Origin: a virus
Strand: one strand, 5' to 3'
IMG/VR virus record: IMGVR_UViG_3300026488_000025
Location: 1 to 64,000 of that record
DNA: 64,000 nucleotides
Of this stretch, positions 1 to 53,660 are shown piece by piece (the stretch's first letter is position 1; each line of letters begins with the position of its first letter). Both the position numbers and the translations under genes were made by a program. The notes below the pieces were generated by a model. The model was not told the DNA's origin. It was given only the letters and a program-made list of their open reading frames with translations, and did not search any database.

Positions 1-20
1 TTTATTATAGGAGTTCTACA

Positions 21-761
21 ATGAACCACTACACATACGAAATCACAAAAATATCAATACAAAAGCACTACATAGGTACTCGCTCATCAAAAATCGAACC
101 TGAGCAAGATATAGGGTATATATACTTTTCCTCTAGCACAGATAAAGAGTTTATGCAAGACCAGAAGACCAACCCATCAGATTACATCTATAATGTGCTT
201 TCTAAATTCAATACACGAGAAGAAGCAATACAACACGAAATAGATTTACATAAAGAGTTCAATGTAGGAGTAAATGAGAATTACTTCAATAAAGTAAGAC
301 AAACATCCACTGGTTTCAATTCTGGTGGAATACCAAAGAACACTGCACACAAACAATTAATATCAGATTCCAATAAACGCACAAAAAATTCAGATGAATG
401 GAAGAATAGTGTAGGTAAAATAACAAGAAGCAAGCTGGTTATAGCGACAAAGAAATTGTGGGAGAATAGAGAGTATAGAGAGAAACAAATAAATTCGCAT
501 AAAGGTAAATGCACGGGTTTGATGCATAGTACCAATAAACCCATTGGCATATATAACGAATTTGGAGAACATATCTTTACTGTCCTATACGATATAGTTG
601 GTAGTTTGGATTTACTAGGATACCCAGGTAAACAATTCCAATCCACATTATATAGGGGTACGAAACTCTATTCTAGCAATAGAGAGTGTGACATAGGTAA
701 ATACAAAAATAGCAAATATTATTACCTAAAAGGTTGGTATGCTAAACATTTAAAGAGTTAA
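21..761 (+). CDS. Free-standing GIY-YIG-like (Seg-type) homing endonuclease
   Basis: N-terminal YTYEIT...HYIG motif, YFSSS and a conserved E/N (AIQHEIDLH...NENYFNK). RBS ATAGGAG. Antisense to the ligase fragment, overlapping its end. Confidence 0.75.
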   Translation: MNHYTYEITKISIQKHYIGTRSSKIEPEQDIGYIYFSSSTDKEFMQDQKTNPSDYIYNVLSKFNTREEAIQHEIDLHKEFNVGVNENYFNKVRQTSTGFNSGGIPKNTAHKQLISDSNKRTKNSDEWKNSVGKITRSKLVIATKKLWENREYREKQINSHKGKCTGLMHSTNKPIGIYNEFGEHIFTVLYDIVGSLDLLGYPGKQFQSTLYRGTKLYSSNRECDIGKYKNSKYYYLKGWYAKHLKS

Positions 762-12300: not shown

Positions 12301-13698
12301 CTAGTCTCTGTCGAAAGCTATATCTGCCCATTCAGCGATTTTACTTCTCACAACATTTGTAAGGTTAATACCTTGTATTCTGATTCCACTTTCATTTGGT
12401 TTACCACATTGGTTCATCATAAATGTAAGTGCATTGTTTGATTTACCTAAGTAAGGTGCATCAATTTGGTTGTTTGAACCCATAATAAGGAATAGTGTAT
12501 CTTCGCCTGAACGACTGATAATAGTTTTCATAGTGCTTCTATCCCAGTTTTGTGACTCATCTAAGATAATGATACTTCCTTTATCGAATGTTTGCCCTCT
12601 AAGGTGAGCACTATAAACATATTGAACTTGGTATCTGTCTTTGAACTCTTGTACTTTCTCATCAACTTCATCTTGGTGTAGTTTCTTCTTAGCTTTGTTC
12701 TTAACGAGGTTTTCAATCGAATTTTCCATAGGTTGGATGTATCCATTCATTTTTTCTTCGAGTGAACCTGGAAGGAAACCTAACTCATCATCTTTGTTAC
12801 CGGCGATAATAGTCTTTCTGATATAGATAATTTTTTCGTACTTATCTTTGTGTAAGTCCATAAGTCTTGTAGCAGCACCCAATGAAACATAATTCTTACC
12901 AGTTCCAGCAGGACCAGATACTACGATAATATCGTTCGTGTCATCTAATATTAAATCAGACATTGCCTTCTGACCAACATTTCTAGGAACAGAAGGGTCA
13001 CGATTAATATTTTTATCATCGATTAAACCCCAGCTGTTTACGGTTCTAAAATAATAGTATCTGTTACCAGTGATTGGGTTTGTTACTTCAATATTACTGA
13101 TATGGTCTTCACATTCAGGTATAAGTGTAATATCACCATTGAATCCTTCAATCTCTAGCTCACAATGAAAAGAGATAGTGTGATTATCTAAATCAGTATC
13201 AAGTTTAAGTGTCTCAGCATCGATGCCTAGTGATATAGCTCTCGTTCTAGCCATAATATCTAATGATACAAAAATAACAGTATCGTGTGCATACATCTTT
13301 TTAACATCTGCAGCGATTTCTAAGATTTTTCTATCGTTGATAATTTTCTTATCGATGTCTAGTTTATCGACATCATAACCATCTTTAGCGATAAGGTGTA
13401 AATCAATAGTGCTTTCTTCGTTAATTTTTACATTAATGAAATTAAGGTTTTCTATCTTAACATTATCAGTAATAATAGCATCTTGGAGTTGTCTTTGAAA
13501 TTGTCTTGCTTGGTAGTTGATTTCATCGTGGCCTGATTTCTTAGCGTCGATTTCATCTAATACAGTTTCGGGAAGGACAATTAAGTTATTGCCGTCTTGT
13601 GATAGTAGTTCTATATTACTTGATTCATTAAGAATAATGTTAGTATCGAGAACATATATTTTCTCGTAAGTCTTATCTAGTAATTTCGTATTAGTCAT
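12301..13698 (-). CDS. phoH: PIN-PhoH family ATPase
   Basis: N-terminal PIN (VLDTNIIL), Walker A GPAGTGKN, LGFLPG, LRGQTF and IILDESQN. Confidence 0.9.
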   Translation of the reverse strand: MTNTKLLDKTYEKIYVLDTNIILNESSNIELLSQDGNNLIVLPETVLDEIDAKKSGHDEINYQARQFQRQLQDAIITDNVKIENLNFINVKINEESTIDLHLIAKDGYDVDKLDIDKKIINDRKILEIAADVKKMYAHDTVIFVSLDIMARTRAISLGIDAETLKLDTDLDNHTISFHCELEIEGFNGDITLIPECEDHISNIEVTNPITGNRYYYFRTVNSWGLIDDKNINRDPSVPRNVGQKAMSDLILDDTNDIIVVSGPAGTGKNYVSLGAATRLMDLHKDKYEKIIYIRKTIIAGNKDDELGFLPGSLEEKMNGYIQPMENSIENLVKNKAKKKLHQDEVDEKVQEFKDRYQVQYVYSAHLRGQTFDKGSIIILDESQNWDRSTMKTIISRSGEDTLFLIMGSNNQIDAPYLGKSNNALTFMMNQCGKPNESGIRIQGINLTNVVRSKIAEWADIAFDRD

Positions 13699-15015: not shown

Positions 15016-16359
15016 TTATGCTAAAGCTCCACCTACATTAACTGAGAATGTTCTTGCGTAATCTTCTGGTGAAAGAGGATTAGTAGTAAGACCATATCTT
15101 GTGTTAAGAATGATTGCTGGTTGACCAGATGCTTCGTGTGTAATTCTTGTGAAAGAAACAGGAACATATGGAGCGAAATAACCAATAGCGTCTCTTCTAT
15201 CAGAACCTTTGTAAAGTACAGTACAGTATTCAGAAGTAGCGAAAACATCCATAATAACTTTTTTACCTTCGAAAGTTCCAACCATACCAGTTCCAACAAC
15301 TTGTGCATTAACTGAAGTATTTACTGGATTAGCAGTATAACCTTTAAGTTGTTCTAACATAGTTACAACTTTTGGACTTGCAATGATAACATTACCAGCT
15401 CCTCTACGAGTCTTACGAGCGATTTCTCTACTTTCGTTAGCGATTTTAATTGCTAAGTTTCTGTAACCATCAATCTCATTTCTAGCTCCGGCTCCACCAG
15501 CAGTAATGAATGGTGCAACATCTGGAACTGCAGTAGCAGTATCATTTACGAAATCAACGATTTCTCTGTCCATTTCATTTTGTACTTCAATTGCCATCAT
15601 ATTCATAAGTTCTTCATCAGCGTTAAGACCGTGCATTGCTTTTAAATCTTGGTACATTTCAACTGAATACTCACCTTTAAGTTTACGAGATTTAGCTTCG
15701 ATTGATTTTCTAACAATAGAGAATCCAACTTCTTTCATATCGTAACCTAATAACTCAGCTTCGTTAGTTGGTAAAGAACCAGTATAACCTTTAAGAATCT
15801 TTCTGAAAGAAAGTTCGTTTGAGTAAGTAGCAGTAACATCAGTATCAGCAGTTGTAAAAGAAACAGTTGCTTGTCCTTCAGCATCATATGCTCTATCTAC
15901 ATCAACAAGAACAAGTGAACCTTCAACATAAATTACAGTACCAGTAGCAGCAGAAACAGAACCAGTTACAGTATCTCCAATTGCAGGAACAGTAGCCATA
16001 TCTAAAATTTGTCCACCTTTGATAGGAGAAACTCTTCCACCAGTGTTATCATTTACATTAGTTCCACCACCAGTATAACGAAAGTTAAGTGAGTAGATAA
16101 ATCCAGTTGGTGTATTAAGTGGTTGAACACCTAAAAGGTCGTTTGCGATAAGCGCAGGCATTACTCTACGAGCAAGTGGCATAAAGATTGGTGTGAATTG
16201 AGTAACATCAGAAGCGATAGTTCCCTCTGCAAGTAGTTTACTTTCTTCAACTTGTTGATTCTCAAGCATAATTGCCATTGTTGATTTTTCTGATTCAGCA
16301 AGTGCTGGCATCTTTTCAGACTCGATTAAATCAATATATTTTTCTGTTAATAGTTCCAT
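15016..16359 (-). CDS. Major capsid protein (gp23-like)
   Basis: GVQPLNTPTG, EAKSRKLK..YSVE..QDLKAMHG, YFAPYVP and QPAIILNTRYG. Confidence 0.95.
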   Translation of the reverse strand: MELLTEKYIDLIESEKMPALAESEKSTMAIMLENQQVEESKLLAEGTIASDVTQFTPIFMPLARRVMPALIANDLLGVQPLNTPTGFIYSLNFRYTGGGTNVNDNTGGRVSPIKGGQILDMATVPAIGDTVTGSVSAATGTVIYVEGSLVLVDVDRAYDAEGQATVSFTTADTDVTATYSNELSFRKILKGYTGSLPTNEAELLGYDMKEVGFSIVRKSIEAKSRKLKGEYSVEMYQDLKAMHGLNADEELMNMMAIEVQNEMDREIVDFVNDTATAVPDVAPFITAGGAGARNEIDGYRNLAIKIANESREIARKTRRGAGNVIIASPKVVTMLEQLKGYTANPVNTSVNAQVVGTGMVGTFEGKKVIMDVFATSEYCTVLYKGSDRRDAIGYFAPYVPVSFTRITHEASGQPAIILNTRYGLTTNPLSPEDYARTFSVNVGGALA

Positions 16360-21893: not shown

Positions 21894-22408
21894 TTCTTTC
21901 TCCTTTTCTTAACGCTCATCTTCCAAGCATCACTTGATGAGATTCCCATAAAATGTTCGCCTCTAAGCTCCACCACTTTCAAGTAGCTTTCGTGTGGAAT
22001 CAAAATACCTTTCTTACTTATTCTCTTATTTATATATTTTCTTAGTGCTGGAGCACCACTCTTAGCAAGTAACTTTAACATTCCCTGATAAGTAAAATCT
22101 AAAGGTTTTCCTGCTTTAATATTTCTTTTGTTTCTTCTTAGTATAATCTTCATTAAATTCTTTCTTACAGAAGGTGGTATCCAGTGCCAGTTTAATGCAA
22201 GAGTATGTCTGCTATTTCTACCTAGTATCATTGCCATAGGGGTAGCATCATACGGTGATTTCTTATCTTTTGCATTATAAGAATACATTATTATTTGTCC
22301 AGGCTGGAAATCTGAAGCCTTTAGTATTTTAGGTTTTTTTGCTAAATGTTTTACTAAATCAAAAGCTTCTTTCTCGTTACTCGTTAGTTTTTTTCTTATT
22401 TTACTCAT
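21890..22408 (-). CDS. DNA end protector (gp2-like)
   Basis: PGQIIMYSYNAK...YD..P...LALNWHWIPP..R. Confidence 0.8.
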   Translation of the reverse strand: MSKIRKKLTSNEKEAFDLVKHLAKKPKILKASDFQPGQIIMYSYNAKDKKSPYDATPMAMILGRNSRHTLALNWHWIPPSVRKNLMKIILRRNKRNIKAGKPLDFTYQGMLKLLAKSGAPALRKYINKRISKKGILIPHESYLKVVELRGEHFMGISSSDAWKMSVKKRRKK

Positions 22409-22781
22409 TCGGTACTCCTAGTATTGCACTAATTTTTTCTTTGAGGACTTGTGGTGTAAACGGCTTGACAATGTAGTTATTCACGCCTGCTCGCAAAGCT
22501 TCGAGAACGCTCATTTTCCCACCCTCTGTCGTAACCATTACAATAGGTATCTCTTTATTCACTACACGAACTTTTTTAACGAATTCTAGTCCATTCATTA
22601 CGGGCATATTCCAATCTGTGATAATAATATCGAAAGGTTTATCGAATGAAGCTAGTGTATAAGCTTCAAATGCTTCTTCTCCATTGATTGCTTTCGTGAC
22701 ATCTTTGTACTCTAACCTAGCTAGTGTATTGGCAATAATCCTCAGCATCGTTGTGCTATCATCTACAATTAGTATTTTCAT
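22401..22781 (-). CDS. cheY: Chemotaxis response regulator CheY (stand-alone receiver)
   Basis: MKILIVDDS, ITDWNMP (phospho-Asp), MVTTEGGK, GVNNYIVKPFTPQVLKEK; closely matches Campylobacter/Helicobacter CheY. ATG at 22781. Confidence 0.9.
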   Translation of the reverse strand: MKILIVDDSTTMLRIIANTLARLEYKDVTKAINGEEAFEAYTLASFDKPFDIIITDWNMPVMNGLEFVKKVRVVNKEIPIVMVTTEGGKMSVLEALRAGVNNYIVKPFTPQVLKEKISAILGVPNE

Positions 22782-22794
22782 ATAAATATTTATA
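22781..22794. promoter_or_regulatory. Overlapping divergent late promoters for gp4 (+) and cheY (-)
   Basis: TATAAATA at 22781-22788 (+) and at 22787-22794 (-). Confidence 0.6.
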
Positions 22795-22805
22795 AAGGAT
22801 TCAGA

Positions 22806-23306
22806 ATGGCATTCAAGAAAAAAACTCTCAAACAAGGTTATTTTACTCCAAAATTCCCAGACAAATATATTATTACAGAAAAGAGCATCACGAAAGGGAA
22901 TGGTATTAGGTATATGAGTGGATGGGAAAGAATGTTTTTTGATTTCTGTGACCTGAACCCTAATGTACTATCTTGGAATTCTGAAGGTATTCAAATTCCT
23001 TATATCTCACCATTAGATAATAGACAGCATACATATTATCCTGATGTGTATCTTGAGGTTAGAAGAGCTGATGGTTCAGTAGAGAAATCTTTAGTGGAAA
23101 TTAAACCTAATGCTGAGCGTATGCCCCCTAAGGAACCTAAGAAGAAAACAGAAAAGAGTAAAGCTAGGTATATGAAACAATGTCAAACATTTTTAGTGAA
23201 TCAGGCGAAATGGGAACAGGCGGAAAGGTTTTGTAATGATAATGGTATTACTTGGAAGATTATGGATGAATACTCTTTGGGTATAAAAAAACAACCAAAG
23301 AAATGA
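22806..23306 (+). CDS. Head completion nuclease (gp4-like)
   Basis: P.KY...YMSGWE..F..FCD.NP.V..WNSE...IPY...YYPD...VEIKP...NQAKW. Confidence 0.9.
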   Translation: MAFKKKTLKQGYFTPKFPDKYIITEKSITKGNGIRYMSGWERMFFDFCDLNPNVLSWNSEGIQIPYISPLDNRQHTYYPDVYLEVRRADGSVEKSLVEIKPNAERMPPKEPKKKTEKSKARYMKQCQTFLVNQAKWEQAERFCNDNGITWKIMDEYSLGIKKQPKK

Positions 23307-23467
23307 AATTCAAATTAGAAGATACATCATACGAATCAATATTAGAAGTAAGAAAAGCACTACAAGATTACAAATATACAGTAACACTTGATAACATTTA
23401 TACAGTCGAAGGTGAATCAAAAGGTATTATAAGCAATCTTCAATTCGTGATAATAACAGTCTTATAA
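23303..23467 (+). CDS. Small hypothetical protein (54 aa, below the track cut-off)
   Basis: ATG overlaps the gp4 stop: MKFKLEDTSYESILEVRKAL... Confidence 0.5.
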   Translation: MKFKLEDTSYESILEVRKALQDYKYTVTLDNIYTVEGESKGIISNLQFVIITVL

Positions 23468-23474
23468 ATACATT

Positions 23475-23554
23475 TAATAAGAGGAATCTTGTTTGAACTA
23501 ACTCTTCGCGGTCTTTAGTTCAAACAAGATTCAGGCCGCGAACCACTCTTATAA
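23475..23554 (+). ncRNA. Structured endonuclease leader, copy A
   Basis: Late promoter 23463-70; 18-bp stem 23484-501/23515-532; loop 23505-514 complementary to 23533-542; outer ATAAGAG/CTCTTAT. Confidence 0.75.
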
Positions 23555-23575
23555 TTTACTTATAGGAGTTCTCTA

Positions 23576-24346
23576 ATGAACCTTACAGAAATATTACACG
23601 AATTCAAATCACATAACCTTAACATAATCGATGAATCTAAACTTATAGAGTATATAGACTTTTGCATATCTCACAATCAAAATAACAAAATAATGTACAA
23701 AACAGCACACCATCACATTCTACCACAAGCAGTAAAACTACCATTTGGTAACTTCAGCGACCTCAAATCAAATCCTTGGAACGGCGTGCATTTACTACAC
23801 AAAGACCATTATGACGCACACTTTCTACTTTGTCAATCAATAGAGCATTATAGCATAGTGAGTTCATTTTATGCTATGAATAATAAAGATTTAAAGAATA
23901 AGAGATTAGATAAAAATGATATGGTTTCTGAAGATGTTACGGAATTGTTATTAAGAGATAGAACTAAACTAGTAACAGCAGAATATCTATTAAACGGTGA
24001 ATATACTTCTATAGCTAAAGAAGTGGGTAAGAAAGCATCTATAACGAAAAGAAAAGGATTTATAAAAGATGGGAACCTGACTACGATAGCTAAAGAAAGC
24101 GGAAAGAAAAGAACAGCTACAAATAATGGTAGAGCTATTACAGTTGTTATTTACAATATTAATAATGAAGTTATTGAAGAGTGTAACGGTACTTTCTTTG
24201 CTTTTTGTAAAATACATTCATTGGATTATACATCGTTAAAGAACGCGTCTAAAGATAGTAGATTATTCAAGACAAATCTAAGTAAAGCAAGAGCTATAAA
24301 CCAAGGAAAAGAAAAGTTTATAGGTTGTTATACAGAAACTAAATAG
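23576..24346 (+). CDS. Free-standing HNH homing endonuclease (Mob-like)
   Basis: HHHILP...WNGVHL...DHYDAHFLL. Confidence 0.8.
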   Translation: MNLTEILHEFKSHNLNIIDESKLIEYIDFCISHNQNNKIMYKTAHHHILPQAVKLPFGNFSDLKSNPWNGVHLLHKDHYDAHFLLCQSIEHYSIVSSFYAMNNKDLKNKRLDKNDMVSEDVTELLLRDRTKLVTAEYLLNGEYTSIAKEVGKKASITKRKGFIKDGNLTTIAKESGKKRTATNNGRAITVVIYNINNEVIEECNGTFFAFCKIHSLDYTSLKNASKDSRLFKTNLSKARAINQGKEKFIGCYTETK

Positions 24347-26571: not shown

Positions 26572-26889
26572 CTAGTTTAGTTCTATTCTTATTTCGTTTT
26601 CATCGTGCTCGATAGTATATTTGTCGTAGACTCCATCAACCAACATAAAGGCACTCTCTGCATCTTTAGCTTTAAAAAATACTAAGGTTTTACCTTTCTT
26701 AGTCGGTTTCTCTAATTTGATTTTGTAACCAAATTCTCTGATAATCTGAATAGGATTAGCTTCAGCTTCAATTAAGGTTTCCATCTTAGATTTCGGTGCT
26801 TCTTCACTCTGAACCTCTTGTGGTGCTTCTGTTATTGCTATTGCTTCGTTTGTGATTTTTGATTCTAATAAATTTCTAAATGGTTTCAT
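26572..26889 (-). CDS. Hypothetical protein
   Basis: ORF with RBS. Confidence 0.55.
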   Translation of the reverse strand: MKPFRNLLESKITNEAIAITEAPQEVQSEEAPKSKMETLIEAEANPIQIIREFGYKIKLEKPTKKGKTLVFFKAKDAESAFMLVDGVYDKYTIEHDENEIRIELN

Positions 26890-28079
26890 ATATGTACTCC
26901 GTTACTGTTTAATATTTTCCTCATATCTGCTGATGATATTTTCTCGAAATTCTTGATATAAGCTTCTTTGATTTTAATTTTCTCTTCTGCTTCAGTCTGT
27001 TTTAATGCTTCACCTAAAGGTCCTGATTTTCTAATAACTGCAGACCTGATTTCAGAATCTACGGCTATTGTATCGAAAATTTCATTAATTTCTATATCGA
27101 ATAGACTGTCTAGCATACTAAACATACCTACCATATATCCCTTCTCAGGTGATTCTGGATAGTGTCTTGCCATTTCTTCAGCTCTATCTATTGTGGCTTC
27201 AAGAACATTATTCGATAGAGCTTCACCTTCTACTTCTGCGAACAAGAAAATCAGTAACCACTGCGATAACGGATTTCTACCTATCATTGTTATTGCTTGT
27301 GAGATTGTAGAAATCTTTTTCGTGAATTCTTGTTGGTTATTCACAAATTTCAATATATTATATACTAGCTCTGGTCGTGTTTTAATATACTCTTCGATTT
27401 GTGTAGTACTAGCATCTTGTTTCAGTAAGACCATTAGCTGTAGAATAATAACCCGCGTGGCATCTTTGATGCTCTTACAAGTCTTAATCTCAGGTTTACC
27501 AATATAGTATCCCTGGAAATATTCAAAACCAAAATCTATATATTTTTTGTAGTCTTCTACTGTCTCAATCTTCTCTGCTAATAGCGTAATACCCATCTTT
27601 TTAAATTTAGGTATCAGTTTTACGAGATTTTCTTCGTTTACTGTCTGAATATCTATTTTCAATATGTTCACATACTTCCATAATGGATTAAATTGCTTAA
27701 GCATTTCTGAAGAAGCATCAAAATCATCAACGGCTATAATAAAACCTGCTTGTTTTAGTAAACGGACTTTCGAAACTACTTCGGGTGTAACATCTATTGT
27801 TTCAAGTAGTTCTATAACATATTTGTCATAATCGAGCATATCAAGTATATCGTGCTGTAGCATTTCTTCATCCACATTTAAGAAACCTAATCGGTCTTCT
27901 AATACATTATCTATGTTTAAATGAGTCAAAAGATTAAATAAGACTTTTGATGTTGCTGCTATATTAGACGGAAAATCATCGATGCCCCGAGGATTATCTC
28001 GATATAATAATTCATAACCTATTAATTTTCCGTGTAGGTTCTTAATAGGTTGTCGTGCTATAAAGACATCTGTAGCCAT
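26886..28079 (-). CDS. EAL-HDOD c-di-GMP phosphodiesterase (YuxH/PdeH type)
   Basis: ARQPI, YELLYR, FLNV, IELLE, AVDDF, LKID, AEKIE, FQGY, followed by an HDOD helical domain. Likely start 28079. Confidence 0.85.
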   Translation of the reverse strand: MATDVFIARQPIKNLHGKLIGYELLYRDNPRGIDDFPSNIAATSKVLFNLLTHLNIDNVLEDRLGFLNVDEEMLQHDILDMLDYDKYVIELLETIDVTPEVVSKVRLLKQAGFIIAVDDFDASSEMLKQFNPLWKYVNILKIDIQTVNEENLVKLIPKFKKMGITLLAEKIETVEDYKKYIDFGFEYFQGYYIGKPEIKTCKSIKDATRVIILQLMVLLKQDASTTQIEEYIKTRPELVYNILKFVNNQQEFTKKISTISQAITMIGRNPLSQWLLIFLFAEVEGEALSNNVLEATIDRAEEMARHYPESPEKGYMVGMFSMLDSLFDIEINEIFDTIAVDSEIRSAVIRKSGPLGEALKQTEAEEKIKIKEAYIKNFEKISSADMRKILNSNGVHI

Positions 28080-28104
28080 AGTGACCTCGTTTTGTGAGTA
28101 TTTA

Positions 28105-28869
28105 TCAAAAAGACAAACCGTTCGGTACAAGGTTTAAAATATCTACATCATCTACCTCTCCCGAACAATGACCAAATTCCTTGAATGAGCAATAACCACA
28201 TAAAGGTGAGACTTTTTTAGGATATCTCTCCCCATTCTCACAAGATTTTGTATCGGCATATAAATCTTTAATAAGCTGTGTTAAATCTTTTCTGTGGAAT
28301 GTTTCGTGTCTTTGAGTACCGTGTTCTACATAGATAAAAGCAGTCTGAACCTCGTTGATGTGTGGATATTCAGTAAATGCCCACACAGCGTATGTTTTCA
28401 TTTGGTCGTTGGTGAAAAAACGAGTATCAGTACTCTTATCTTTACCTGATTTATAGTCATCGATAAAAATCTTATCTCCTTCCCACCAGTGAACATCGAT
28501 AGCACCACGAATCCAAGAAGTTTTATCCCAATAGTCGCACGATACTAGTTTAGCATCTATGATTTTGAAAGCAAACTTTTGTTCGTTGATATAATTTTGT
28601 TTAATAATGTTAGCCCATATTGGACCTTCTTTGAATTTATTTACAGATACAAGAGCAAGTGCTTTCTCTTCTGGTGTAAATATTTTATTCGTTTTGAAAT
28701 CGGGACGGTCATCGTTGTACTCTAAACATTCGTGAATATATGAACCTTTATATAGAGCTAGATTCGGTTCGAATGGAACCTTAACCTTGTCAATGTATTG
28801 TAGTTTAAATTTCATCGGACAAGTTCTAAAACTATCTAATCTTGAATGTGAGTATGGTGAGAATTTCAT
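28105..28869 (-). CDS. PD-(D/E)XK exonuclease, Cas4/RecB-like
   Basis: YSHSRL..F..CP, RGAIDV, IDDYKSG, QMKTY and C-terminal CGYC...C (four Cys in total). Confidence 0.85.
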   Translation of the reverse strand: MKFSPYSHSRLDSFRTCPMKFKLQYIDKVKVPFEPNLALYKGSYIHECLEYNDDRPDFKTNKIFTPEEKALALVSVNKFKEGPIWANIIKQNYINEQKFAFKIIDAKLVSCDYWDKTSWIRGAIDVHWWEGDKIFIDDYKSGKDKSTDTRFFTNDQMKTYAVWAFTEYPHINEVQTAFIYVEHGTQRHETFHRKDLTQLIKDLYADTKSCENGERYPKKVSPLCGYCSFKEFGHCSGEVDDVDILNLVPNGLSF

Positions 28870-31198: not shown

Positions 31199-32053
31199 TC
31201 AACTCTTAACTGCGTACCAACCATCCAATTCTCTATTAGATTGTTTTCTTGCCTTCTTGCTATCAATCTTTTTGTTTGTTTGATATGACTTTTTGAGTAG
31301 ATACATTTCTAAATTATATTCTTCACATTTCTGCACGAAATCTCCGTGGCTTTCAAATATAAGAACATCATCCTTATTATATACAAATATTTTCAGTGCC
31401 ATACCATTTTTGTTGCCTGGTAACGAACCTAAAGACTTGTATAAATCTTTATTATTATGATAATCTTCTGAAGGCACTCTAGTTTTCACTCCAGTGGATA
31501 TAATTTCAACTGCTACTGTCCCTTTAGCTACACCCACGAAATTGCCACTATCAAAATCTTCTTTAGATATGCTTGTAGTTTCTCCGTTTATTGATACAGC
31601 TACCATACCTTTAGTATTATGTTCATACTCGCCTGTTGCAAATTCTTCTGAAGACACTCTTATATGACCTTCTTTTGTTTTGACAACTACGCTATTTCTA
31701 TTGGTATTTGCCGCTTTTATTATATCTTCTTTGGAGAACTTATATTGTAGATTATTTTCATTAACATAACCCCAGCCACCTATACCACCAACCTTTAAAT
31801 TATAGGTATCTTTTCGTTTAATAAATTCTTCTGTTACTATCTCATTTTCTTTAGCATAAGATTCTTCTTTGGTGTTGTATGCAAATATTTCTACTATTTC
31901 AAATTGAGATTTACTGTATTTTCTAATTGAATCTCCTAAATGAGAATCAGAGTTAGCGTGGCCTTTGAATCTATTCTTTAGCGTATCTTCTGTTACACCT
32001 ATGTATATTTTACAGTTTAATTTATTCGTAATTTGGTACACTTTATGTTTCAT
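31199..32053 (-). CDS. GIY-YIG homing endonuclease inserted in Thg1
   Basis: KVYQITNKLNCKIYIGVT...RF.GH, E...YNLKVGG; late promoter. Confidence 0.85.
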   Translation of the reverse strand: MKHKVYQITNKLNCKIYIGVTEDTLKNRFKGHANSDSHLGDSIRKYSKSQFEIVEIFAYNTKEESYAKENEIVTEEFIKRKDTYNLKVGGIGGWGYVNENNLQYKFSKEDIIKAANTNRNSVVVKTKEGHIRVSSEEFATGEYEHNTKGMVAVSINGETTSISKEDFDSGNFVGVAKGTVAVEIISTGVKTRVPSEDYHNNKDLYKSLGSLPGNKNGMALKIFVYNKDDVLIFESHGDFVQKCEEYNLEMYLLKKSYQTNKKIDSKKARKQSNRELDGWYAVKS

Positions 32054-32104
32054 CCCATTCTCCTAAAAGTCTATATACTACTATTTATAGAGTACGAGAT
32101 ACTG

Positions 32105-35631: not shown

Positions 35632-35859
35632 TTAAGAATATATGTTTTGGTTGTATGGTTTAGGGTTGGATTTAGAGAGTTCGAGGTTCTCTTCGCTCAA
35701 GTCTATGATTACTTGGCTGTATTGTAGAAGAAGAGTGGTTAGTAGTTTTACATCATCACCCGTTGTATTTTCGAAATCGAGTTCATCGAATTCTTCTTTC
35801 ATACTACCTAAGGTAGCTTTAAGGGTATCAATGAGAGCCCTATTGATAGGGACAATCAT
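35632..35859 (-). CDS. Hypothetical protein
   Basis: ORF coupled to clpX. Confidence 0.5.
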   Translation of the reverse strand: MIVPINRALIDTLKATLGSMKEEFDELDFENTTGDDVKLLTTLLLQYSQVIIDLSEENLELSKSNPKPYNQNIYS

Positions 35860-37109
35860 TATTCAGATTCCTTCGTTTTGAACTTACCTCTACTGTAATC
35901 CACATTAAGTGATTTACCTTTGAATTCGTTGATATTATACATCGTGTCTAGCATAATCGATTCAAGAATCGTTCTAAGGCCACGAGCTCCTGCCTTTTGT
36001 TCAAGTGCCATATCAGCAATTTGGTCGATACTTTTTTTACTGAAACCTAAATCTACATCGTCCATTGTGAATAATGTTTTGAACTGTGAAATAATGTTGT
36101 TGCTAGGCTCTGTTAAAATTCTAACCATTTCTTTCTTTGTAATCATTTCTAATTCAGTATGGATTGGGAAACGACCCATTAGCTCAGGAATCATACCATA
36201 AGCAATAAAATCTTCATTCGTTACTGATTCTTTTTGAGTTTTTTTCTTATCATCAAAATTATAACCAATAACATCATTGTCCTTTAGTCTTGCTTTAATA
36301 ACATCATCCATACCATCGTATGCACCAGCACAGATAAACAGAATATTTGTAGTGTCGATTTCTACTGTCTTACCTGCATTAGGATTTGATTTGTTTCTAT
36401 CGATAGGAACCTGAACCTTAGAACCTTCTACTAATTTAAGAAGCTCTTGTTGTACACTAGCACCACCGACATCACGACCACGACCACCAGTCTTAGCAAT
36501 TTTATCTACCTCATCGATGAATACGATACCACGCTCACACGCTGCGATGTCTTCGCCCGAATCTTGATACAATCTATACAGAATACTAGAAACATCTTCT
36601 CCGACATAGCCAGACTGTGTTAATGATGTGCTATCTGTAATAGCCATTGGAACATTTAGTGCCTTAGCAATCGTTTGTGCAAGTAATGTTTTACCTGAAC
36701 CAGTGGGCCCAATCATCAAGATATTTGATTTTTGTACATACTCGCCTGTCTTAAGCTTGAGTAATCTTTTGTAGTGGTTATATACAGCTACAGCAAGAAC
36801 TTTTTTGGCTTGATTTTGACCTATAACGGCCTCATCTAATGTATTTTTTACTTCTACTGGAGAGAATACATCCCAATCGATTAAATCAGTGCTTTCTTCT
36901 GGTGTATCAGAAAAAATATCCATATCTTTTGTACCGAGAACATCTGATGCAACAGCTACACACGATTTACAAATACTGACATCATCAGCTACGATGATAA
37001 CATTTTCTTTTGTTTCTTTTTGTTTACAGAAACTACACACTTTTGTTTCGTTCTCTTTGCTTTCTTTACTCATTAATCTCGTCCTTTTCTTTTCTAATTG
37101 ATTCACCAT
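35859..37109 (-). CDS. clpX: ClpX ATPase subunit
   Basis: CSFC/ICKSC zinc domain, VIGQNQAKK.LAVAVYNHYKR, GPTGSGKT, GYVGEDV, VQQELLK and GARGLR. Confidence 0.95.
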   Translation of the reverse strand: MVNQLEKKRTRLMSKESKENETKVCSFCKQKETKENVIIVADDVSICKSCVAVASDVLGTKDMDIFSDTPEESTDLIDWDVFSPVEVKNTLDEAVIGQNQAKKVLAVAVYNHYKRLLKLKTGEYVQKSNILMIGPTGSGKTLLAQTIAKALNVPMAITDSTSLTQSGYVGEDVSSILYRLYQDSGEDIAACERGIVFIDEVDKIAKTGGRGRDVGGASVQQELLKLVEGSKVQVPIDRNKSNPNAGKTVEIDTTNILFICAGAYDGMDDVIKARLKDNDVIGYNFDDKKKTQKESVTNEDFIAYGMIPELMGRFPIHTELEMITKKEMVRILTEPSNNIISQFKTLFTMDDVDLGFSKKSIDQIADMALEQKAGARGLRTILESIMLDTMYNINEFKGKSLNVDYSRGKFKTKESE

Positions 37110-40552: not shown

Positions 40553-40624
40553 CTTTCTCTCCTTTTAATCTTTATATGTAATATTATAACATAACTTAAC
40601 TTAAAAACTCCTTATAAATAAGAG

Positions 40625-40714
40625 TATAAGAGATACTACATATACTTTCTAACTCTTAGTCGGGTTCTTAGAAAGTATATGTAGTGTGAACCCGACTAAC
40701 CTCACACTCTTATA
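40625..40714 (+). ncRNA. Structured endonuclease leader, copy B
   Basis: Late promoter 40613-20; 20-bp stem 40633-52/40668-87; loop 40656-67 perfectly complementary to 40688-99; outer TATAAGAG/CTCTTATA. Confidence 0.75.
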
Positions 40715-40736
40715 ATAAAAATATAGGAGTCTTCAA

Positions 40737-41372
40737 ATGACTACACAACAAGAAAATCAAGTAACACTATACATAGCAACTCATAACAAAACAGGTCTTA
40801 AGTATTTCGGTAAAACAACAGTTTATTTTACTGAAGAACTACTCCAAGAAAAATATCACGGAAGTGGTAAATATTGGGTTAGGCATCTTAAAAAACACGG
40901 TGATGATGTGACTATGGAAATCTATGGTATATATGCATTGGATGAAGTAAAAGAAGTTGCATTAAAGTTTTCTGAAGAAAACAATATAGTAAAATCTCAT
41001 AAATGGTCAAACCTTAAGTTAGAAAATGGTTTAGATGGAGGTTCAACTATATGGTCAGAGAAGTCAAAAATCAAAAATAGTATTAGTCACCTCGGAGTCA
41101 AAAATAGTATGTACGGAAAGACTCATTCTTTAGAAACGAAGCTTCTTTTAGGTAAACAGTCCTCACTAAGAACTCAAGGTTCTGATAATCCAAATGCTAA
41201 AAAGTGGAAAGTAACTAATCCAAACGGTATAATATTTATTGTTGAAGGAGGTATTATCGATTTTTCCAAAAAACATAATTTACCTACTACTACTTTAGCA
41301 ACAATGGCTAAAGAAAATAGAATAATGAAATCCGGTAAATTAGTGGGTTGGAAGTGTGAATTTCTTACTTAA
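40737..41372 (+). CDS. GIY-YIG-like (Seg-type) homing endonuclease with NUMOD3-like motif
   Basis: TLYIATH..TGLKYFGKT, YHGSG.YW and MYGKTHS.ETK. Confidence 0.8.
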   Translation: MTTQQENQVTLYIATHNKTGLKYFGKTTVYFTEELLQEKYHGSGKYWVRHLKKHGDDVTMEIYGIYALDEVKEVALKFSEENNIVKSHKWSNLKLENGLDGGSTIWSEKSKIKNSISHLGVKNSMYGKTHSLETKLLLGKQSSLRTQGSDNPNAKKWKVTNPNGIIFIVEGGIIDFSKKHNLPTTTLATMAKENRIMKSGKLVGWKCEFLT

Positions 41373-41542: not shown

Positions 41543-42259
41543 ATGGAGACAATTATGATATTAGGACCTAGTGTAACGCACAAATTATCTTTAATAAGAT
41601 TTACTAAACTTGAAGAAGAATGCTTAGAAATACACGGCGACCAATTTAACTATGATTCTTTCGTATTTACTAATATGAGATTACCGTCCACTATAATATG
41701 TAATATATGCAAAACATCATTCGATACATCTATGGACGCTCACATAAACAAAAAGTCTGGATGCAAAAAGTGCAAATCAACTAAACCTCAGCTAACACTC
41801 GATACGATTAAAAAGAGAGTCAAAAAATGTCACGGCGACAAATACACTATACTTAGTAGCGTGTTTACCGGCATAACAAACAAACTACTAATCAGATGCA
41901 ACACTTGTAAATCAGAATATCTTCAAGTAGCCGATAGCATAACTAGAGGTATTGGTTGTGCATCTTGCAATAAGACTGGTTTTAATGACAATAAACCTGC
42001 TACGCTATACTATATAAGTGTAGCTAATACTGCATTTAAAATAGGTATAACTAATAGGACAATAAAGGAACGATTTGGTAAAGATTTTAGTAAAATACGA
42101 GTTATAGCAACAAAACATTTCGATAAAGGTGTAGATGCTCGTTTAGCAGAACGAGAAATCATACTAAAATATAGAGAATGTCGCTATTTAGGCGAAAATC
42201 TACTAATGAACGGTAATACAGAATTATTTTATATGGATGTACTACAAGGTAAGCTTTAG
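41543..42259 (+). CDS. Zinc-ribbon-repeat homing-endonuclease-like protein (DUF723/Hef-like)
   Basis: Two repeats with CxxC...GCxxC; C-terminal LYYI...FKIGIT....ERF...GNTE. Confidence 0.7.
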   Translation: METIMILGPSVTHKLSLIRFTKLEEECLEIHGDQFNYDSFVFTNMRLPSTIICNICKTSFDTSMDAHINKKSGCKKCKSTKPQLTLDTIKKRVKKCHGDKYTILSSVFTGITNKLLIRCNTCKSEYLQVADSITRGIGCASCNKTGFNDNKPATLYYISVANTAFKIGITNRTIKERFGKDFSKIRVIATKHFDKGVDARLAEREIILKYRECRYLGENLLMNGNTELFYMDVLQGKL

Positions 42260-44713: not shown

Positions 44714-45729
44714 ATATTATCCTTTATATGTTTCAAATATGTAGTGCGGTTTATTATACTAAAACTATCTACATATTTTTGTTTATTTTTCAATAACCTG
44801 AAGTTATCAACTGTGCTTTTATACTGTTTTGCTATTAAATAGTTAGCAAAATCATTTTTCCTCATATAGATACCATCCACAAGAAAGAAGTATTTAGCAT
44901 CAATAGTTGTATAAGTATTATCAGTTTCGTAAGTAGGTTTAGTTATCTCTACTAATTTATCTGTTTTTATATCCCAAGCAGTAACTATGTTTTGTTTTAC
45001 GCTTTTAAGTTTCCCTAGTTTATATTCTTCTGAAGAAACCTTTATAGTATTGCCTTTTTCGTCTTTGACGCATACTTTATTACTGGAATTATGGCTATAA
45101 TTCTGTTTATTCTTATAATATTCTTGTTTCGTTACTGATATGTTATTACCTTTTTTATCTACAACTACAACTCTACCTTTAGTATGAAATAAATGAATAT
45201 CACTATCATATTGGTCTTTATTTACTGTAATATTTTCGCCTGTTCTTATAAGTTTAACATTAACCTTACCTTTAGCAACACCTACATAACTAGGATTTGC
45301 TTTAAACTCTTCTACTGTGACTCGCTTTTTATCGCCAGTTTCTAAATCTATAATAGTTGTAGTACCAAGTTTGTCTAGCGATATTTGTTGCATAGATTGT
45401 TGCTTTAGTGCACCATAAGTAGTAGAATCAATAACACCTTTCATATCGTTCTTGTGAGTCATACCCCACCAAGCATAAGTAGTAGATGGTTCATCTAAAG
45501 CTTGAGCTAATAGAGAATGAGCAATGTAGTGGTCTTCGCACAATAATATAGCACGATTCCACACATAGTCTTTAAGATTACTATAATCTGGAAATAATGC
45601 TTGTGGTAGAATGTGATGGTTCTCTGTTTGGTTCTTGATATATATAGACTTATTATTATTACAAAAGTCTATATACTCTATTAGTTTTAACTGGTTTTTA
45701 ACTCTAACATTTTTGAAATATTCTAGCAT
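44710..45729 (-). CDS. Free-standing HNH homing endonuclease with repeated C-terminal modules
   Basis: ENHHILP...WN...L..EDHYIAH.LL and repeated GV.KG.V.V modules; likely start 45729. Confidence 0.8.
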   Translation of the reverse strand: MLEYFKNVRVKNQLKLIEYIDFCNNNKSIYIKNQTENHHILPQALFPDYSNLKDYVWNRAILLCEDHYIAHSLLAQALDEPSTTYAWWGMTHKNDMKGVIDSTTYGALKQQSMQQISLDKLGTTTIIDLETGDKKRVTVEEFKANPSYVGVAKGKVNVKLIRTGENITVNKDQYDSDIHLFHTKGRVVVVDKKGNNISVTKQEYYKNKQNYSHNSSNKVCVKDEKGNTIKVSSEEYKLGKLKSVKQNIVTAWDIKTDKLVEITKPTYETDNTYTTIDAKYFFLVDGIYMRKNDFANYLIAKQYKSTVDNFRLLKNKQKYVDSFSIINRTTYLKHIKDNI

Positions 45730-45787
45730 AATGACCTCCAAAAGTCTATATAGTATTATTTATATAGACCGTTCAAGAAATCAAGTG

Positions 45788-46975: not shown

Positions 46976-47156
46976 CAATGTCTATATACATATCTATTTA
47001 TAAACTTTATTTCTGAACATATTATATCAAGTTTTTACTTAATAACGATACGCTTATCAAAGATTCTAAACTTCTCGTTCATTCTCTTTGTGTACAGTAT
47101 TATAACAAAAAAGGACTTAATTTTTGTATATAAATACTATCAAAATGGAGAACTCT

Positions 47157-48065
47157 ATGGAATTAATCACCGAAGAAGAATTAAGAAGAATCGATGAAGC
47201 AACTACAATCAATGACCTTGTTAATACAGAAATACTAATTACTAGTATGGAAAGAATTGTACAAAAAGATAGTATTGCTTATCAAGTATCAGATATTAGA
47301 AAAATGGCAGGCCCAACTGGTCGTGTTAATGGATATTTAAGAGATAAAACATCAGATAAGATGATTGTAAAAACAGCACTTGTAGAAGCTGTGTCAAGAA
47401 CGATTAAATCTGAATTCACATTAGAAGTTCTTAAAGATAATGCAAGATTATATGGTGAAGATTTTCACGAAGTTCTTGCTTATTACTTCATAGATGAACT
47501 TGCTTATACAATCGATGCAGATTTTATCGATATGACTAAACTTGCTTCTAAAAAGAGTACAGCTTTATCTTTTGACTCTAGCTTTGATAATAACATTTAT
47601 GATGTTGTTACACAAGTTTTCGCTAAAATAAACAAAGAAAGAGTTGCACTTGCTACACGCTCTAAACGCCCACTAAAAACTTGGGCAGTTGTTTCACCAA
47701 ATATTGCTTCATTGCTTATGAATAACAGTATTCTTGCTCAAGATTTAGATAAAGGTGATTCAGGTGTTTCTCTTTTAGGTTCATTTGCTGGTATGGATAT
47801 CTACTTAGATAATACGCATACGGATGTAAAAGATTATGTTCTTTTAGGTGTTAAAGGAAATGGTTTTGCTAAAGGTGCTACGACTGTAAGCCCTTATGAG
47901 AGAACTTTCTTTACATCACAAGACCAATTATCAGGTGAGAGAAATTACTTTATGCTAGATAGAATAGCTATGATTCAAAACCCATCGGATACATTAGGTG
48001 ATGACCTTTCAAGTATGCTAGTGTCATTTGAGATAGATTTAAGCCAATTAGCGTTATACGCATAA
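47157..48065 (+). CDS. Capsid vertex / major-capsid paralogue (gp24-like)
   Basis: MAGPTG, VEAVSR.IKSEFT.E, AVVSPNIAS and SPY; late promoter at about 47129. Confidence 0.75.
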   Translation: MELITEEELRRIDEATTINDLVNTEILITSMERIVQKDSIAYQVSDIRKMAGPTGRVNGYLRDKTSDKMIVKTALVEAVSRTIKSEFTLEVLKDNARLYGEDFHEVLAYYFIDELAYTIDADFIDMTKLASKKSTALSFDSSFDNNIYDVVTQVFAKINKERVALATRSKRPLKTWAVVSPNIASLLMNNSILAQDLDKGDSGVSLLGSFAGMDIYLDNTHTDVKDYVLLGVKGNGFAKGATTVSPYERTFFTSQDQLSGERNYFMLDRIAMIQNPSDTLGDDLSSMLVSFEIDLSQLALYA

Positions 48066-50661: not shown

Positions 50662-52185
50662 TTAAAGTTTGATTGCTAGAATCTCATCGATTAATGCGTT
50701 TGAGTTTTTCCACATCTTCGGAATTACGCTTAACATCTTGTCCGAAAATCCTGAAACTTCCAGAATGTCATTAGATAATTTCATTGGTGTGTCACCGCCG
50801 TATCCTTGAAGATTCCAGAATAGTATCTTAACATTTGGGTTGATTTTTCTATATGCTGTTACTGCTTGTTTGAATGAACCTAAACTATTTGATTGCATAT
50901 CTGTTAGGATAACAATTTTATCTACGAATGTTTTCGTTTTCACTAAATCTGCCATACTAGCATTAAGATTTGTACCATATCCTTGTGTGTTTGTTCTCTT
51001 AATGAAATCGAACGGAGAACCACTGATATCCACTCTACGAGCATTGTCTGCCCATAAGTAACCTAATGTTTTGGTTTTATCTAATCCCACTAACATACTT
51101 GCCATTAAAATCTTACCGATTTTGAATGGGCTCATTTCTGTAGCACTTGAACCCCATCCTGAACTACCCATTGAACCTGACTCATCTAGTAACAGTGCTA
51201 CACTCTCACCTTCATCAACGATTGGGATATTCTTTGCTGAAATAATGAAACCTGCTTCGATACCATCTAATAGTTCTTTTTGTAAGATTCTATCGAATGA
51301 CATTGCTTCTACTGCTTCTGCTGCTTGAATAAATCTGAATGGAAGTACCATAGATTTACGACACGCTTTCTCATTTCTGAATAACAATGAAAGTTTTGTA
51401 ATCATTGCTTGTCTATCTGATTGGTCGAAACCATCAAGAGTTTCTAAGATATTTTTAAGGTTTTTAAGACCAGCCATATATCCTAGTTTTCCTTCGATTA
51501 ACATACTGAAATAGTTTTGAGCTCTTGATTCACCAGTTGATTGAGCATTAACTGTTTGAGCAGTAACGATGTTCTCTAATGTTCCTTCGATTAATCTTTT
51601 GAATACATCTGTATCTTTTGCTTTACCTTTTGCTACAAGAGTTTCTGGATTTGGACGAGCAAGTTTAACGATGTCACGAAGTTTAATCTTACCTGAACCA
51701 CCTGAATATTTCTTTAATTGATACTCATCAAATTTTGACTCAAATACATCTTTGATTGCTCTACGAAGAGAATTTGGAATCATTTTACCTTTATTGCGAG
51801 TATTGAATAAAGCAACCATTTCCATAGCATCATCAGGTCTTACAATAGTTTTAGTAAGAGCACTTCTTAAATAATCAGTACCTTTAACATTTTCTGCTAA
51901 GATAGCACCCATTATATGTGATACAGTTCTAAGATTACCTTCATTACGAACATAAACTGCTGCTTTTGCTGCGAACTCTGAATCGCCTTCAGCAACCATA
52001 CCTATAATACGATTGATTCTATCTGATTCTGATTCGTAATATGAATTACCATTTACCATACTTGATAAGATAACTGAAGCTAACTCTTTACGAGCATCTT
52101 CATATTTGTATGCTACACCACCTGCTAAGTTTGTAGTTTCTGCTTTTTTCTCTGTTTGATTGATTGTTTCGTTGAATTTTGCCAT
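50662..52185 (-). CDS. Ro60/TROVE-domain RNA-binding protein with vWA domain
   Basis: TNLAGG.AY, KAAVYVR...NLR, FDEYQLKKY, LPFRF, MIDAS DESGSM, GT and LTD.Q. Likely start 52185. Confidence 0.9.
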   Translation of the reverse strand: MAKFNETINQTEKKAETTNLAGGVAYKYEDARKELASVILSSMVNGNSYYESESDRINRIIGMVAEGDSEFAAKAAVYVRNEGNLRTVSHIMGAILAENVKGTDYLRSALTKTIVRPDDAMEMVALFNTRNKGKMIPNSLRRAIKDVFESKFDEYQLKKYSGGSGKIKLRDIVKLARPNPETLVAKGKAKDTDVFKRLIEGTLENIVTAQTVNAQSTGESRAQNYFSMLIEGKLGYMAGLKNLKNILETLDGFDQSDRQAMITKLSLLFRNEKACRKSMVLPFRFIQAAEAVEAMSFDRILQKELLDGIEAGFIISAKNIPIVDEGESVALLLDESGSMGSSGWGSSATEMSPFKIGKILMASMLVGLDKTKTLGYLWADNARRVDISGSPFDFIKRTNTQGYGTNLNASMADLVKTKTFVDKIVILTDMQSNSLGSFKQAVTAYRKINPNVKILFWNLQGYGGDTPMKLSNDILEVSGFSDKMLSVIPKMWKNSNALIDEILAIKL

Positions 52186-52251
52186 TGTGTTCTTTCCTTT
52201 GTTTAATTCTCTTACGAGATAATGTTGAAGTGTCCTCACTTCACCTTGTGT

Positions 52252-52610: not shown

Positions 52611-53366
52611 CTACTTATGTTTACACTTATCGAAATGCCATTGTTTCATTCCATTAATCTTTCCAGACTTATTGCAGTGAGGACAAGTAACTGTCTCTCT
52701 ATTCTTAGCACTATCACTCATTTGTTTCTTAGTACAATCAGAGTGTTCTTTATCTAAGAATGGTTTAGAAGATATTATAACTCCATCAGCATATAGTTTT
52801 TTCATAAGTTTGGATTGTTTCTCTTTTCTTTCCTCTGAATGTTTCTTGCCTAGACAAGGATGAATCTCTCTATTCTTAGCACTATCACTCATTTGTTTCT
52901 TAGTACAATCAGAGTGTATCTGATTGTACATAGGATTACCAACACCTGCTTTTACTTTTCTCATCTTATTTTTTGTTTCTTCTGAATGAGATAGATTAAG
53001 ATTATATGTTTCATAATGTTTTGAATTATACTTTCCTGACCCATTCATTCTTCTAATTGCTTTACTCATCTTTCGTTCACCATAAGTATAAGAGATAGAT
53101 TTGTAGTGTTTCCAAATAAGTATATGACATATAAAGTGCTCTCTAGCGGTAAGAAGAATGCTATTCCATTTATTAGACCTTAGGTCACCATATTCAGGAA
53201 ACATAGATTCGGGTAGAATATGGTGATTCTCAAAGTATATATACTCATCTTCAGATTTTTTAAGTTTCTTACGATTCTCATTTTGGGCATTGTTTATTAT
53301 GCTAAGGTATAATTTGCCATATTTGGTTTCTTGTTTAAGGTGTGATTGTATTTCTGTAAGTGTCAT
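52611..53366 (-). CDS. HNH homing endonuclease (MobE-like) with NUMOD3 repeats
   Basis: ENHHILP...LTAREHFICH; duplicated HSDCTKKQMSDSAKNRE; terminal CPHC...WHFDKC. Confidence 0.85.
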   Translation of the reverse strand: MTLTEIQSHLKQETKYGKLYLSIINNAQNENRKKLKKSEDEYIYFENHHILPESMFPEYGDLRSNKWNSILLTAREHFICHILIWKHYKSISYTYGERKMSKAIRRMNGSGKYNSKHYETYNLNLSHSEETKNKMRKVKAGVGNPMYNQIHSDCTKKQMSDSAKNREIHPCLGKKHSEERKEKQSKLMKKLYADGVIISSKPFLDKEHSDCTKKQMSDSAKNRETVTCPHCNKSGKINGMKQWHFDKCKHK

Positions 53367-53385
53367 AGAAGACTCCTATAATAAA

Positions 53386-53467
53386 TTATAAGAGTTGATT
53401 TCCAGGTCTGTTACTTATTATGATATAGACCTGGAAGAGTATATCATAATAAGTAACACTCTTATTA
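53386..53467 (-). ncRNA. Structured endonuclease leader, copy C
   Basis: Late promoter 53472-79 (-); 19-bp stem 53440-58/53409-27; loop 53428-36 complementary to 53400-08; outer ATAAGAG/CTCTTAT. Confidence 0.75.
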
Positions 53468-53474
53468 TCTGTAT

Positions 53475-53660
53475 TTATATAGTACTATTCTTTGACTCAC
53501 TCAATAACTCTTCTAAATCAGATAGAGCAAATTCGTATCCCTCTAATAAACCTTGAAGATAAGCATCATTATATTCATTATTACTTTTACTTATACCTTC
53601 ATTGGTTACGCTTACCATAATTCTATAAGAATCAATCAATTTTTCAAGTTTCTCGTTCAT
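53475..53660 (-). CDS. Small hypothetical protein (likely start MNEKLEKL)
   Basis: AAGGA RBS upstream of 53660. Confidence 0.5.
   Translation of the reverse strand: MNEKLEKLIDSYRIMVSVTNEGISKSNNEYNDAYLQGLLEGYEFALSDLEELLSESKNSTI

Follow-up and report, generated by a model that had tools for sequence, protein, structure and literature searches.

We analysed the first 64 kb (64,000 nt; hereafter the window) of the 79.7-kb IMG/VR contig IMGVR_UViG_3300026488_000025, which comes from a T4-like phage, and found that homing endonuclease genes in it are preceded by a folded RNA leader of about 100 bases. The leader combines two long interleaved helices, called here X:X' and Y:Y', which cannot both form in full in one molecule, with a local hairpin that closes over the Shine-Dalgarno (SD) sequence of the nuclease gene. 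We located 70 distinct leaders with the full architecture in uncultured phage and metagenome contigs, and in the aligned copies the partners of both long helices have changed together. Most likely, the leader keeps nuclease production low and brief. We found no description of such a leader in the literature, and Rfam gave no match in the window at gathering thresholds and only a chance microRNA hairpin (E 0.47) in a permissive scan, in keeping with a first-pass annotation of this DNA that had recognized no known motif.

Architecture and distribution of the leader

Read directly from the window copies, the leader runs from a T4-type late promoter box (TATAAATA) through 5-6 nt to element A (ATAAGAG), followed by X (18-20 nt), the trinucleotide CTC, Y (9-12 nt), X', and Y'. 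A linker of 3-7 nt then leads to A' (ACTCTTATAA), a loop of 4-7 nt, the SD block (TTATAGGAGT), a further 5-6 nt, and the ATG. This reading agrees with the first-pass annotation, which had assigned one architecture to three segments (23463-23578 and 40613-40739 on the plus strand, and 53364-53479 on the minus strand) and had described X and Y as unrelated among them: cross-copy complementarity is 3-5, compared with 7.5-12 for Y and 18-19 for X within a copy. The pattern A-N50-80-A' has 3 occurrences in the window, where 0.02 are expected, and neither a pattern scan nor a covariance model retrieved further full copies in the whole 79.7-kb contig.

In copy 1, on the plus strand, the late promoter box TATAAATA (23463-23470) overlaps the stop codon of the upstream open reading frame (ORF; 23303-23467), and element A, the predicted 5' end of the late transcript, lies at 23477-23483. 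X (23484-23501) and X' (23515-23532) form a perfect 18-bp hairpin (23484-23532) around a loop of CTC and Y (23502-23514); Y' (23533-23542) complements the loop Y over 10 bp with one G-U. The hairpin that sequesters the ribosome-binding site (RBS; 23545-23569) consists of A' (23545-23554), a 5-nt loop, and the SD block (23560-23569), and is followed by the ATG at 23576. Copy 2 (40613-40739, plus strand) comprises the promoter (40613-40620), A (40626-40632), X (40633-40652), CTC (40653-40655), Y (40656-40667), X' (40668-40687), Y' (40688-40699), the linker (40700-40706), the A' core (40707-40715), the SD block (40722-40730), and the ATG at 40737. Copy 3 (53364-53479) lies on the minus strand, with the promoter at 53479-53472, A at 53465-53459, X at 53458-53440, CTC at 53439-53437, Y at 53436-53428, X' at 53427-53409, Y' at 53408-53400, the linker at 53399-53395, the A' core at 53394-53386, the SD block at 53381-53372, and the ATG at 53366-53364. 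A probable fourth copy had been suspected at the very start of the window, and positions 1-23 (plus strand) indeed hold the 3' arm of an SD hairpin with SD, spacer, and ATG that corresponds to the end of copy 3, with identity over the first 14 nt, and is cut by the contig end. In copy 3, the end of X' together with TATAAT in A' also gives a sigma-70-like promoter match (53385-53414, minus strand; 10/12), which is not kept in the other copies; such matches occur in the region at chance frequency.

Relatives were sought by exact-pattern scans of IMG/VR, one scan of the JGI metagenomes, and a covariance model built from five copies, with which five whole related contigs were searched. From 107 distinct pattern-matching sequences, 37 were discarded as chance. 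The first-pass annotation had called for such a model-based search beyond the window, with attention to linkage to endonuclease genes; it yielded a leader family with nuclease ORFs downstream. These include the 10 matches from a pattern scan of prokaryotic genome contigs, all of them chance occurrences with neither promoter nor helices, and so no clue to the host. A relaxed pattern was rejected, having mostly retrieved an unrelated terminator-plus-promoter family (L022, L025-L034).

Across the 70 copies, the gapless Watson-Crick run of X spans 14-21 bp (mode 18) and that of Y mostly 8-12 bp (mode 9-10). The junction between Y and X' is 0 nt in 50/70 copies, that between X' and Y' is 0-3 nt, and the linker is 2-9 nt long. 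The interval from A to A' is variable except for CTC, which lies in the loop of every copy. The late promoter box stands 4-7 nt 5' of A in 64/70 copies, and an ATG follows within 14 nt of the leader in all 70. We also observed decayed members: a leader in L047 (1440-1540, minus strand) has its A'-SD-ATG segment tandemly duplicated and its ORF destroyed, and a remnant in L019 (4793-4886, minus strand) retains intact promoter, A, X, Y, and X', with Y' interrupted and A', SD, and nuclease gene missing.

Interleaved helices and the SD hairpin

The X:X' helix is 95.9% paired with double-sided changes in 17/17 pairs, and Y:Y' is 96.7% paired with double changes in 9/10 pairs, percentages that come from alignments fitted by two covariance models and so lean somewhat towards the modelled structures. 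The covariation score of X:X' is 0.72 compared with 0.17 for shuffled alignments (0/500 shuffles reach it), and slid controls are only 31-56% paired. Both pairings are thus kept with covariation, as had been proposed from the window copies, and the complementarity of Y and Y', whose loss in homologues had been named as a sign against function, is retained. A script without model fitting gives a loop-to-tail complementarity of 9.3 within a copy, compared with 3.8 for shuffled tails and 4.0 for the tails of other copies, and in 22/26 copies the self score exceeds all 300 shuffles. In the 70-copy comparison, interior non-Watson-Crick pairs comprise 36 G-U and 9 A-C (both scored as mismatches), an excess that points to sense-strand RNA, rather than duplex DNA, as the selected form. 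With the covariance model, the sense strand reaches 104 bits and the antisense strand 27 bits. Neither X nor Y has a second match in the contig, which thus offers no trans target or homing-site mimic.

Given the 0-3 nt junctions around X' and a stem of 16-21 bp, one molecule has no room for both X:X' and Y:Y' at full length, as the first-pass annotation had argued. Pairing of the loop with sequence 3' of the hairpin is the arrangement of an H-type pseudoknot and is present in Y:Y', but on geometric grounds the connecting loops are too short to accommodate both full stems. Opening of the lower 7-9 bp of X, with the freed part of X' acting as connecting loop, would permit a partial pseudoknot. 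In a rough estimate, which sums the stacking of the upper 10 bp of X, Y:Y', and an assumed penalty of 9 kcal/mol, this partial pseudoknot beats the full X hairpin in 54/67 copies. The G+C content is 53% in Y and 20-25% in X, and mismatches are frequent at the second pair counted from the base of X; both features fit, without proving, a base of X that can open. The bistable RNA proposed earlier is a reasonable reading.

The first-pass annotation had placed the RBS outside the paired region, which does not hold: A' complements the SD block, and the resulting hairpin, of 9-10 bp with one G-U and a 4-7 nt loop, closes over the RBS. This hairpin appears in the minimum-energy fold of 24/24 copies tested first and then of 67/67, and is 98.2% paired across 31 sequences. 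Its presence in every lowest-energy fold means that the leader holds an RBS-occluding hairpin of the T4 style.

We further find that element A, overlooked in the first reading, equals the SD core bar one base and is a perfect complement of A'. It is an SD mimic that competes with the SD block for A'. Because A directly abuts X, A:A' pairing would extend the X helix and leave Y' and the linker as a one-sided bulge. In every copy this A:A' (ON) state is less stable than the A':SD (OFF) state, by 0.6-8.8 kcal/mol (median 4.0), whereas in a nascent RNA extending just as far as A', the minimum-energy fold contains A:A' in 66/67 copies. The direct-path refolding barrier has a median of 8.1 kcal/mol from ON to OFF and 11.8 kcal/mol back. 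Element A is invariant in 32 aligned copies, bar one G-U change. The few variants keep the pairing through wobbles, with a G in A that forms G-U with A' (L044), a G in the SD that forms G-U with A' (L038), and a G in A' that forms G-U with the SD block (L023); in L046, an altered 3' arm pairs with a shifted part of A'.

Proposed mechanism and alternatives

On balance, we favor the explanation that the late mRNA of a homing-endonuclease cassette begins with this element as its 5' leader, which controls translation in cis. That such an RNA limits translation by sequestering the SD is likely; the specific scheme of a transient ON state followed by a latch, set out here, is tentative. Transcription from T4 late promoters starts about 6 nt after the promoter box, and from this rule we infer a start at A or within 2 nt of it. 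As the RNA emerges, the long A/U-rich X:X' hairpin would form first, and A' would next pair with the 5'-terminal A, lengthening the X helix and leaving the emerging SD free. The more stable local hairpin of A' with the SD block would then strip A' from A and shut the ribosome site.

The role of Y:Y' could be that of a partial-pseudoknot latch, of intermolecular pairing, or of a structure that acts after cleavage, and we prefer the first. With A released, the weaker lower half of X would open and Y' would pair with the loop Y, so that the product, an H-type pseudoknot of upper X and Y:Y', would make the OFF state hard to reverse. The net outcome would be at most a short burst of nuclease synthesis per transcript, and a control unit that is self-contained in this manner should work wherever the cassette lands.

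Several points weigh against this scheme. The ON-to-OFF barrier is modest, and the ON window may be well under 1 s, perhaps too short to matter. Raising the assumed penalty to 15 kcal/mol leaves the pseudoknot as the winner in just 21/67 copies, and the estimate ignores loop geometry. Y:Y' has no mechanical tie to the choice among A, A', and SD, and the two could be independent modules. Because A, A', and SD are almost invariant, A:A' and A':SD lack true covariation support and draw on complementarity and a few wobble variants. The T4 logic, in which transcripts from the gene's own promoter differ from read-through transcripts, is inapplicable, because both kinds carry the whole leader. A ribosome stopping at the upstream stop codon in the promoter box was considered as a means of separating them, but by our own estimate it would reach just the first base of A, and the idea was dropped. 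A second late promoter within A', as in the T4 design, was likewise rejected, since a perfect late box occurs there in just 2/70 copies and is not conserved. Neither strand of the leader holds an intrinsic terminator.

RBS-sequestering hairpins are known to regulate the T-even homing endonucleases I-TevI, I-TevII, I-TevIII, segB, and Aeh1 mobE (PMC2988022). As in the leader, a homing endonuclease gene driven by a late promoter there has its SD in a stable local hairpin, which likely restricts nuclease synthesis. In the T-even cases, however, the late promoter lies inside or beside the hairpin, and late transcripts lack the 5' arm (PMC2988022), whereas the promoter of the leader lies 85-100 nt upstream of the hairpin and every transcript has the whole of it; release, if any, must therefore come from the competing 5' SD mimic. 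The two long interleaved covarying helices have no T4 counterpart. The leader would elaborate a known kind of control.

Control by the order of folding exists in bacteria, where metastable SD-sequestering hairpins act cotranscriptionally on Helicobacter toxin mRNA (H. pylori aapA3; PMC6733600). Such toxin mRNAs share with the leader mutually exclusive conserved helices, a logic of synthesis order, and control by folding of a potentially harmful protein. Their transient structures block translation during synthesis, whereas in the leader the SD would be exposed by the helix formed first and closed off by the final fold, and neither an antisense RNA nor 3' processing is evident for the leader. 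The leaders of hok and of the MS2 maturation gene also form cotranscriptional metastable SD-sequestering structures. The expression platform of a translational ON riboswitch is similar in that the 3' strand of its P1 helix (here A') can instead pair with the SD, but the leader has no conserved ligand pocket.

Homing endonucleases need to be expressed, but sparingly, and context-independent control in free-standing cassettes is known only for a few T-even genes. The leader is a different and portable solution, made up of a late promoter, an SD mimic, an SD hairpin, and two interleaved helices, and it has been kept over at least 70 diverged copies that serve at least four nuclease families. Its two exclusive, strongly covarying helices make it a clean natural test case for programmed RNA refolding or intermolecular pairing, and it is short enough for direct probing.

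Among the alternatives to the latch, we consider it unlikely, though less so than the others, that Y:Y' is intermolecular, the loop of one leader binding the 3' flank of the hairpin in another copy of the same leader to give copy-specific dimers or chains. All covarying helices could then form together, with a three-way junction arising, on pairing of Y', from the bulge that separates X:X' from A:A', and translation could depend on the amount of that mRNA. A homodimer satisfies all of the covarying pairs of X (17) and Y (10), which are otherwise exclusive, without two states, and Y is short and G+C-rich (53%), as in kissing helices. RNA-only homo-oligomers are documented among bacterial and phage-associated RNAs (PMC12286853; bioRxiv 10.64898/2026.07.01.735769), and the pairings of phi29 pRNA, which the first-pass annotation had mentioned, and of ROOL/GOLLD resemble the leader in having covarying complementary segments that are hard to pair intramolecularly (PMC12286853); these are stand-alone noncoding RNAs with demonstrated oligomers, however, whereas the leader belongs to an mRNA, and oligomers of it are hypothetical. 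The Y elements of copies in one contig cross-pair no better than background, which suits copy-specific pairing, but their cross-complementarity is as high as the background between contigs, not lower, and thus carries no sign of selection for orthogonality. There is also no known reason for a nuclease mRNA to dimerize, and even in a dimer a connector of 3 nt has to span the groove of a 9-12 bp helix. A self-recognizing leader, in which Y of one molecule and Y' of another complete the three-way junction and stabilize A:A', seems doubtful; if true, the nuclease would be translated only once its own mRNA is abundant, through a copy-specific switch that senses RNA concentration.

We give a similarly low probability to a role in mRNA processing, in which A:A' and X:X' together, a long helix of 25-28 bp bearing a one-sided bulge, act as an RNase III site or a 5' stabilizer that sets mRNA life and translation. 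In this reading, Y:Y' would arise only once the X helix had been cut or eroded, as a new protective 5' structure of the processed mRNA. Host RNase III processes phage mRNAs such as the T7 early mRNAs and the lambda N leader. The X helix, near-perfect, A/U-rich, and tightly held to 16-21 bp (mode 18), looks like a substrate measured by a ruler rather than a stability element, and cleavage of X would lift the steric bar to Y:Y'. Keeping Y:Y' would bring no clear benefit under such processing, however, and intact leaders persist before decayed ORFs.

A main role at the DNA level is improbable. The ends conserved in the leader, from promoter to A and from A' to the third codon, would serve together with the palindromes as recombination joints that shuffle nuclease cassettes, much as documented for PeSL cassettes, which are promoter/stem-loop modules of T4-type phages (PMC2839356, PMC4122927). 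Similar leader cores before different ORF families, and syntenic contigs that carry different cassettes at the same sites (both detailed below), speak for it, as do the first three codons shared by HNH and Seg-like ORFs. PeSLs are likewise small conserved promoter-plus-hairpin modules that flank accessory genes and mark modular exchange, but they place a sigma-70-type early promoter after a G/C-rich terminator hairpin (PMC2839356, PMC4122927), whereas the leader has a T4 late promoter followed by an A/U-rich hairpin without a U tract and by the SD hairpin. We found no sigma-70-like early promoter with a terminator stem-loop in it, sigma-70-like matches being at chance level. Shuffling accounts for conserved ends but not for the compensatory evolution of two helices, and it leaves the bias of G-U over A-C, the promoter spacing, and the SD complementarity unexplained; the DNA-level structure suggested in the first-pass annotation is disfavored by that bias (36 vs. 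9) and by the fixed spacing of promoter and A. Shuffling is more plausibly a by-product of the conserved ends than the function under selection.

A role of the RNA as a partner of the nuclease, which the first-pass annotation had also entertained, or as its guide, in loose analogy to HEARO or omega RNA, is very improbable, since physical linkage to nuclease genes is all that favors it, whereas one and the same core stands before genes of unrelated nuclease folds, neither X nor Y matches other parts of the contig, the proteins carry DNA-binding modules of their own (NUMOD3), and Rfam gives no match to HEARO or any other family. Readings as a self-cleaving ribozyme or as a retron-like, attC-like, or xrRNA-like element were rejected by reasoning, for want of conserved cores or partner genes.

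Nuclease genes, probable cassette exchange, and neighboring ORFs

Copy 1 serves an HNH-type homing endonuclease gene (23576-24346, plus strand), copy 2 a Seg-like GIY-YIG homing endonuclease gene with NUMOD3 (40737-41372, plus strand), and copy 3 an HNH-NUMOD3 homing endonuclease gene (52611-53366, minus strand); the remnant at the start of the window precedes a GIY-YIG-type homing endonuclease gene (21-761, plus strand). These assignments bear out those of the first-pass annotation. The proteins encoded at 23576 and 53366 match PHROG HNH and homing-endonuclease families, and HH..N..H is invariant in the family alignment; those encoded at 40737 and 21 match phrog_314 across the region that a Pfam-confirmed GIY-YIG domain also covers. 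In fold comparison, the N-terminal domain of the 40737 protein comes closest to the I-TevI catalytic domain, if weakly (E 0.3, probability 0.89), and the model of the HNH protein was too poor for a fold match. PDB sequence searches with single proteins and family profiles gave nothing useful.

The ORFs behind the family leaders comprise 16 of an HNH group, 13 Seg-like GIY-YIG ORFs, and 16 of a second GIY-YIG group; the remainder comprise an I-TevI-like group and a few others, and eight complete ORFs are shorter than 100 aa. The module is therefore shared by unrelated nuclease folds, as first proposed. One GIY-YIG protein behind a leader (L008, 1035-2993, minus strand) has 653 aa, and the C-terminal two thirds of it consist of many repeats, with 13 stretches matching one PHROG family.

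Of 60 pairs of leaders with cores at least 85% alike, 34 stand before ORFs of different families, and HNH and Seg-like ORFs have their first three codons in common. Such similar cores before different families mark the leader as a portable module, with exchange probably occurring at its conserved ends. At matching sites of two syntenic contigs, the cassettes differ but the leader is of one type. In a syntenic contig pair, 16 bp stand in one contig (empty site, L014, 1290-1330, plus strand) where the other has promoter, leader, and nuclease gene (filled site, L015, 5258-6500, minus strand). This pair was used because we found no relatives of the ORF upstream of copy 1, so that an empty site was not demonstrable for the window copies. 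At the filled site, a diverged duplicate of the upstream gene's last ~10 codons stands behind the cassette, which suggests that this nuclease targets the 3' end of that gene and brings a replacement end along.

The T4-like phage itself is recognizable by its gp20 portal, its gp23 capsid protein, and dozens of TATAAATA late promoter boxes, and the contig is estimated to hold about one third of its genome. It is remote from cultured phages, with a portal at most 43% identical to those of T4-like phages of Vibrio and Campylobacter. No cultured phage matches the locus by megablast, and short-query blastn with the A'-SD block returned only subthreshold chance matches (E ≥ 0.7).

Two other endonuclease-like genes of the window, one HNH-like and one GIY-YIG-like by their N termini, are preceded by another, short conserved leader (45728-45764 and 32053-32089, both minus strand), which lacks a long hairpin and has, after a late promoter box, a common motif of ~15 nt that ends in the SD. 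A third such nuclease-like gene (41543-42259, plus strand) lies in tandem after the gene of copy 2 and has its own late promoter. Copy 3 adjoins a locus that encodes a TROVE/Ro60-like protein (50662-52239, minus strand). Further ORFs, all on the minus strand, encode a stand-alone CheY-type receiver (22401-22835), an EAL-HDOD protein (26886-28130), a PIN-PhoH fusion (12301-13698), and a ClpX-like ATPase (35859-37109). Finally, a second, shorter Gp23-family ORF of 313 aa (47124-48065, plus strand) lies on the strand opposite the main capsid gene (15016-16359) and may encode a homologue of the vertex protein.

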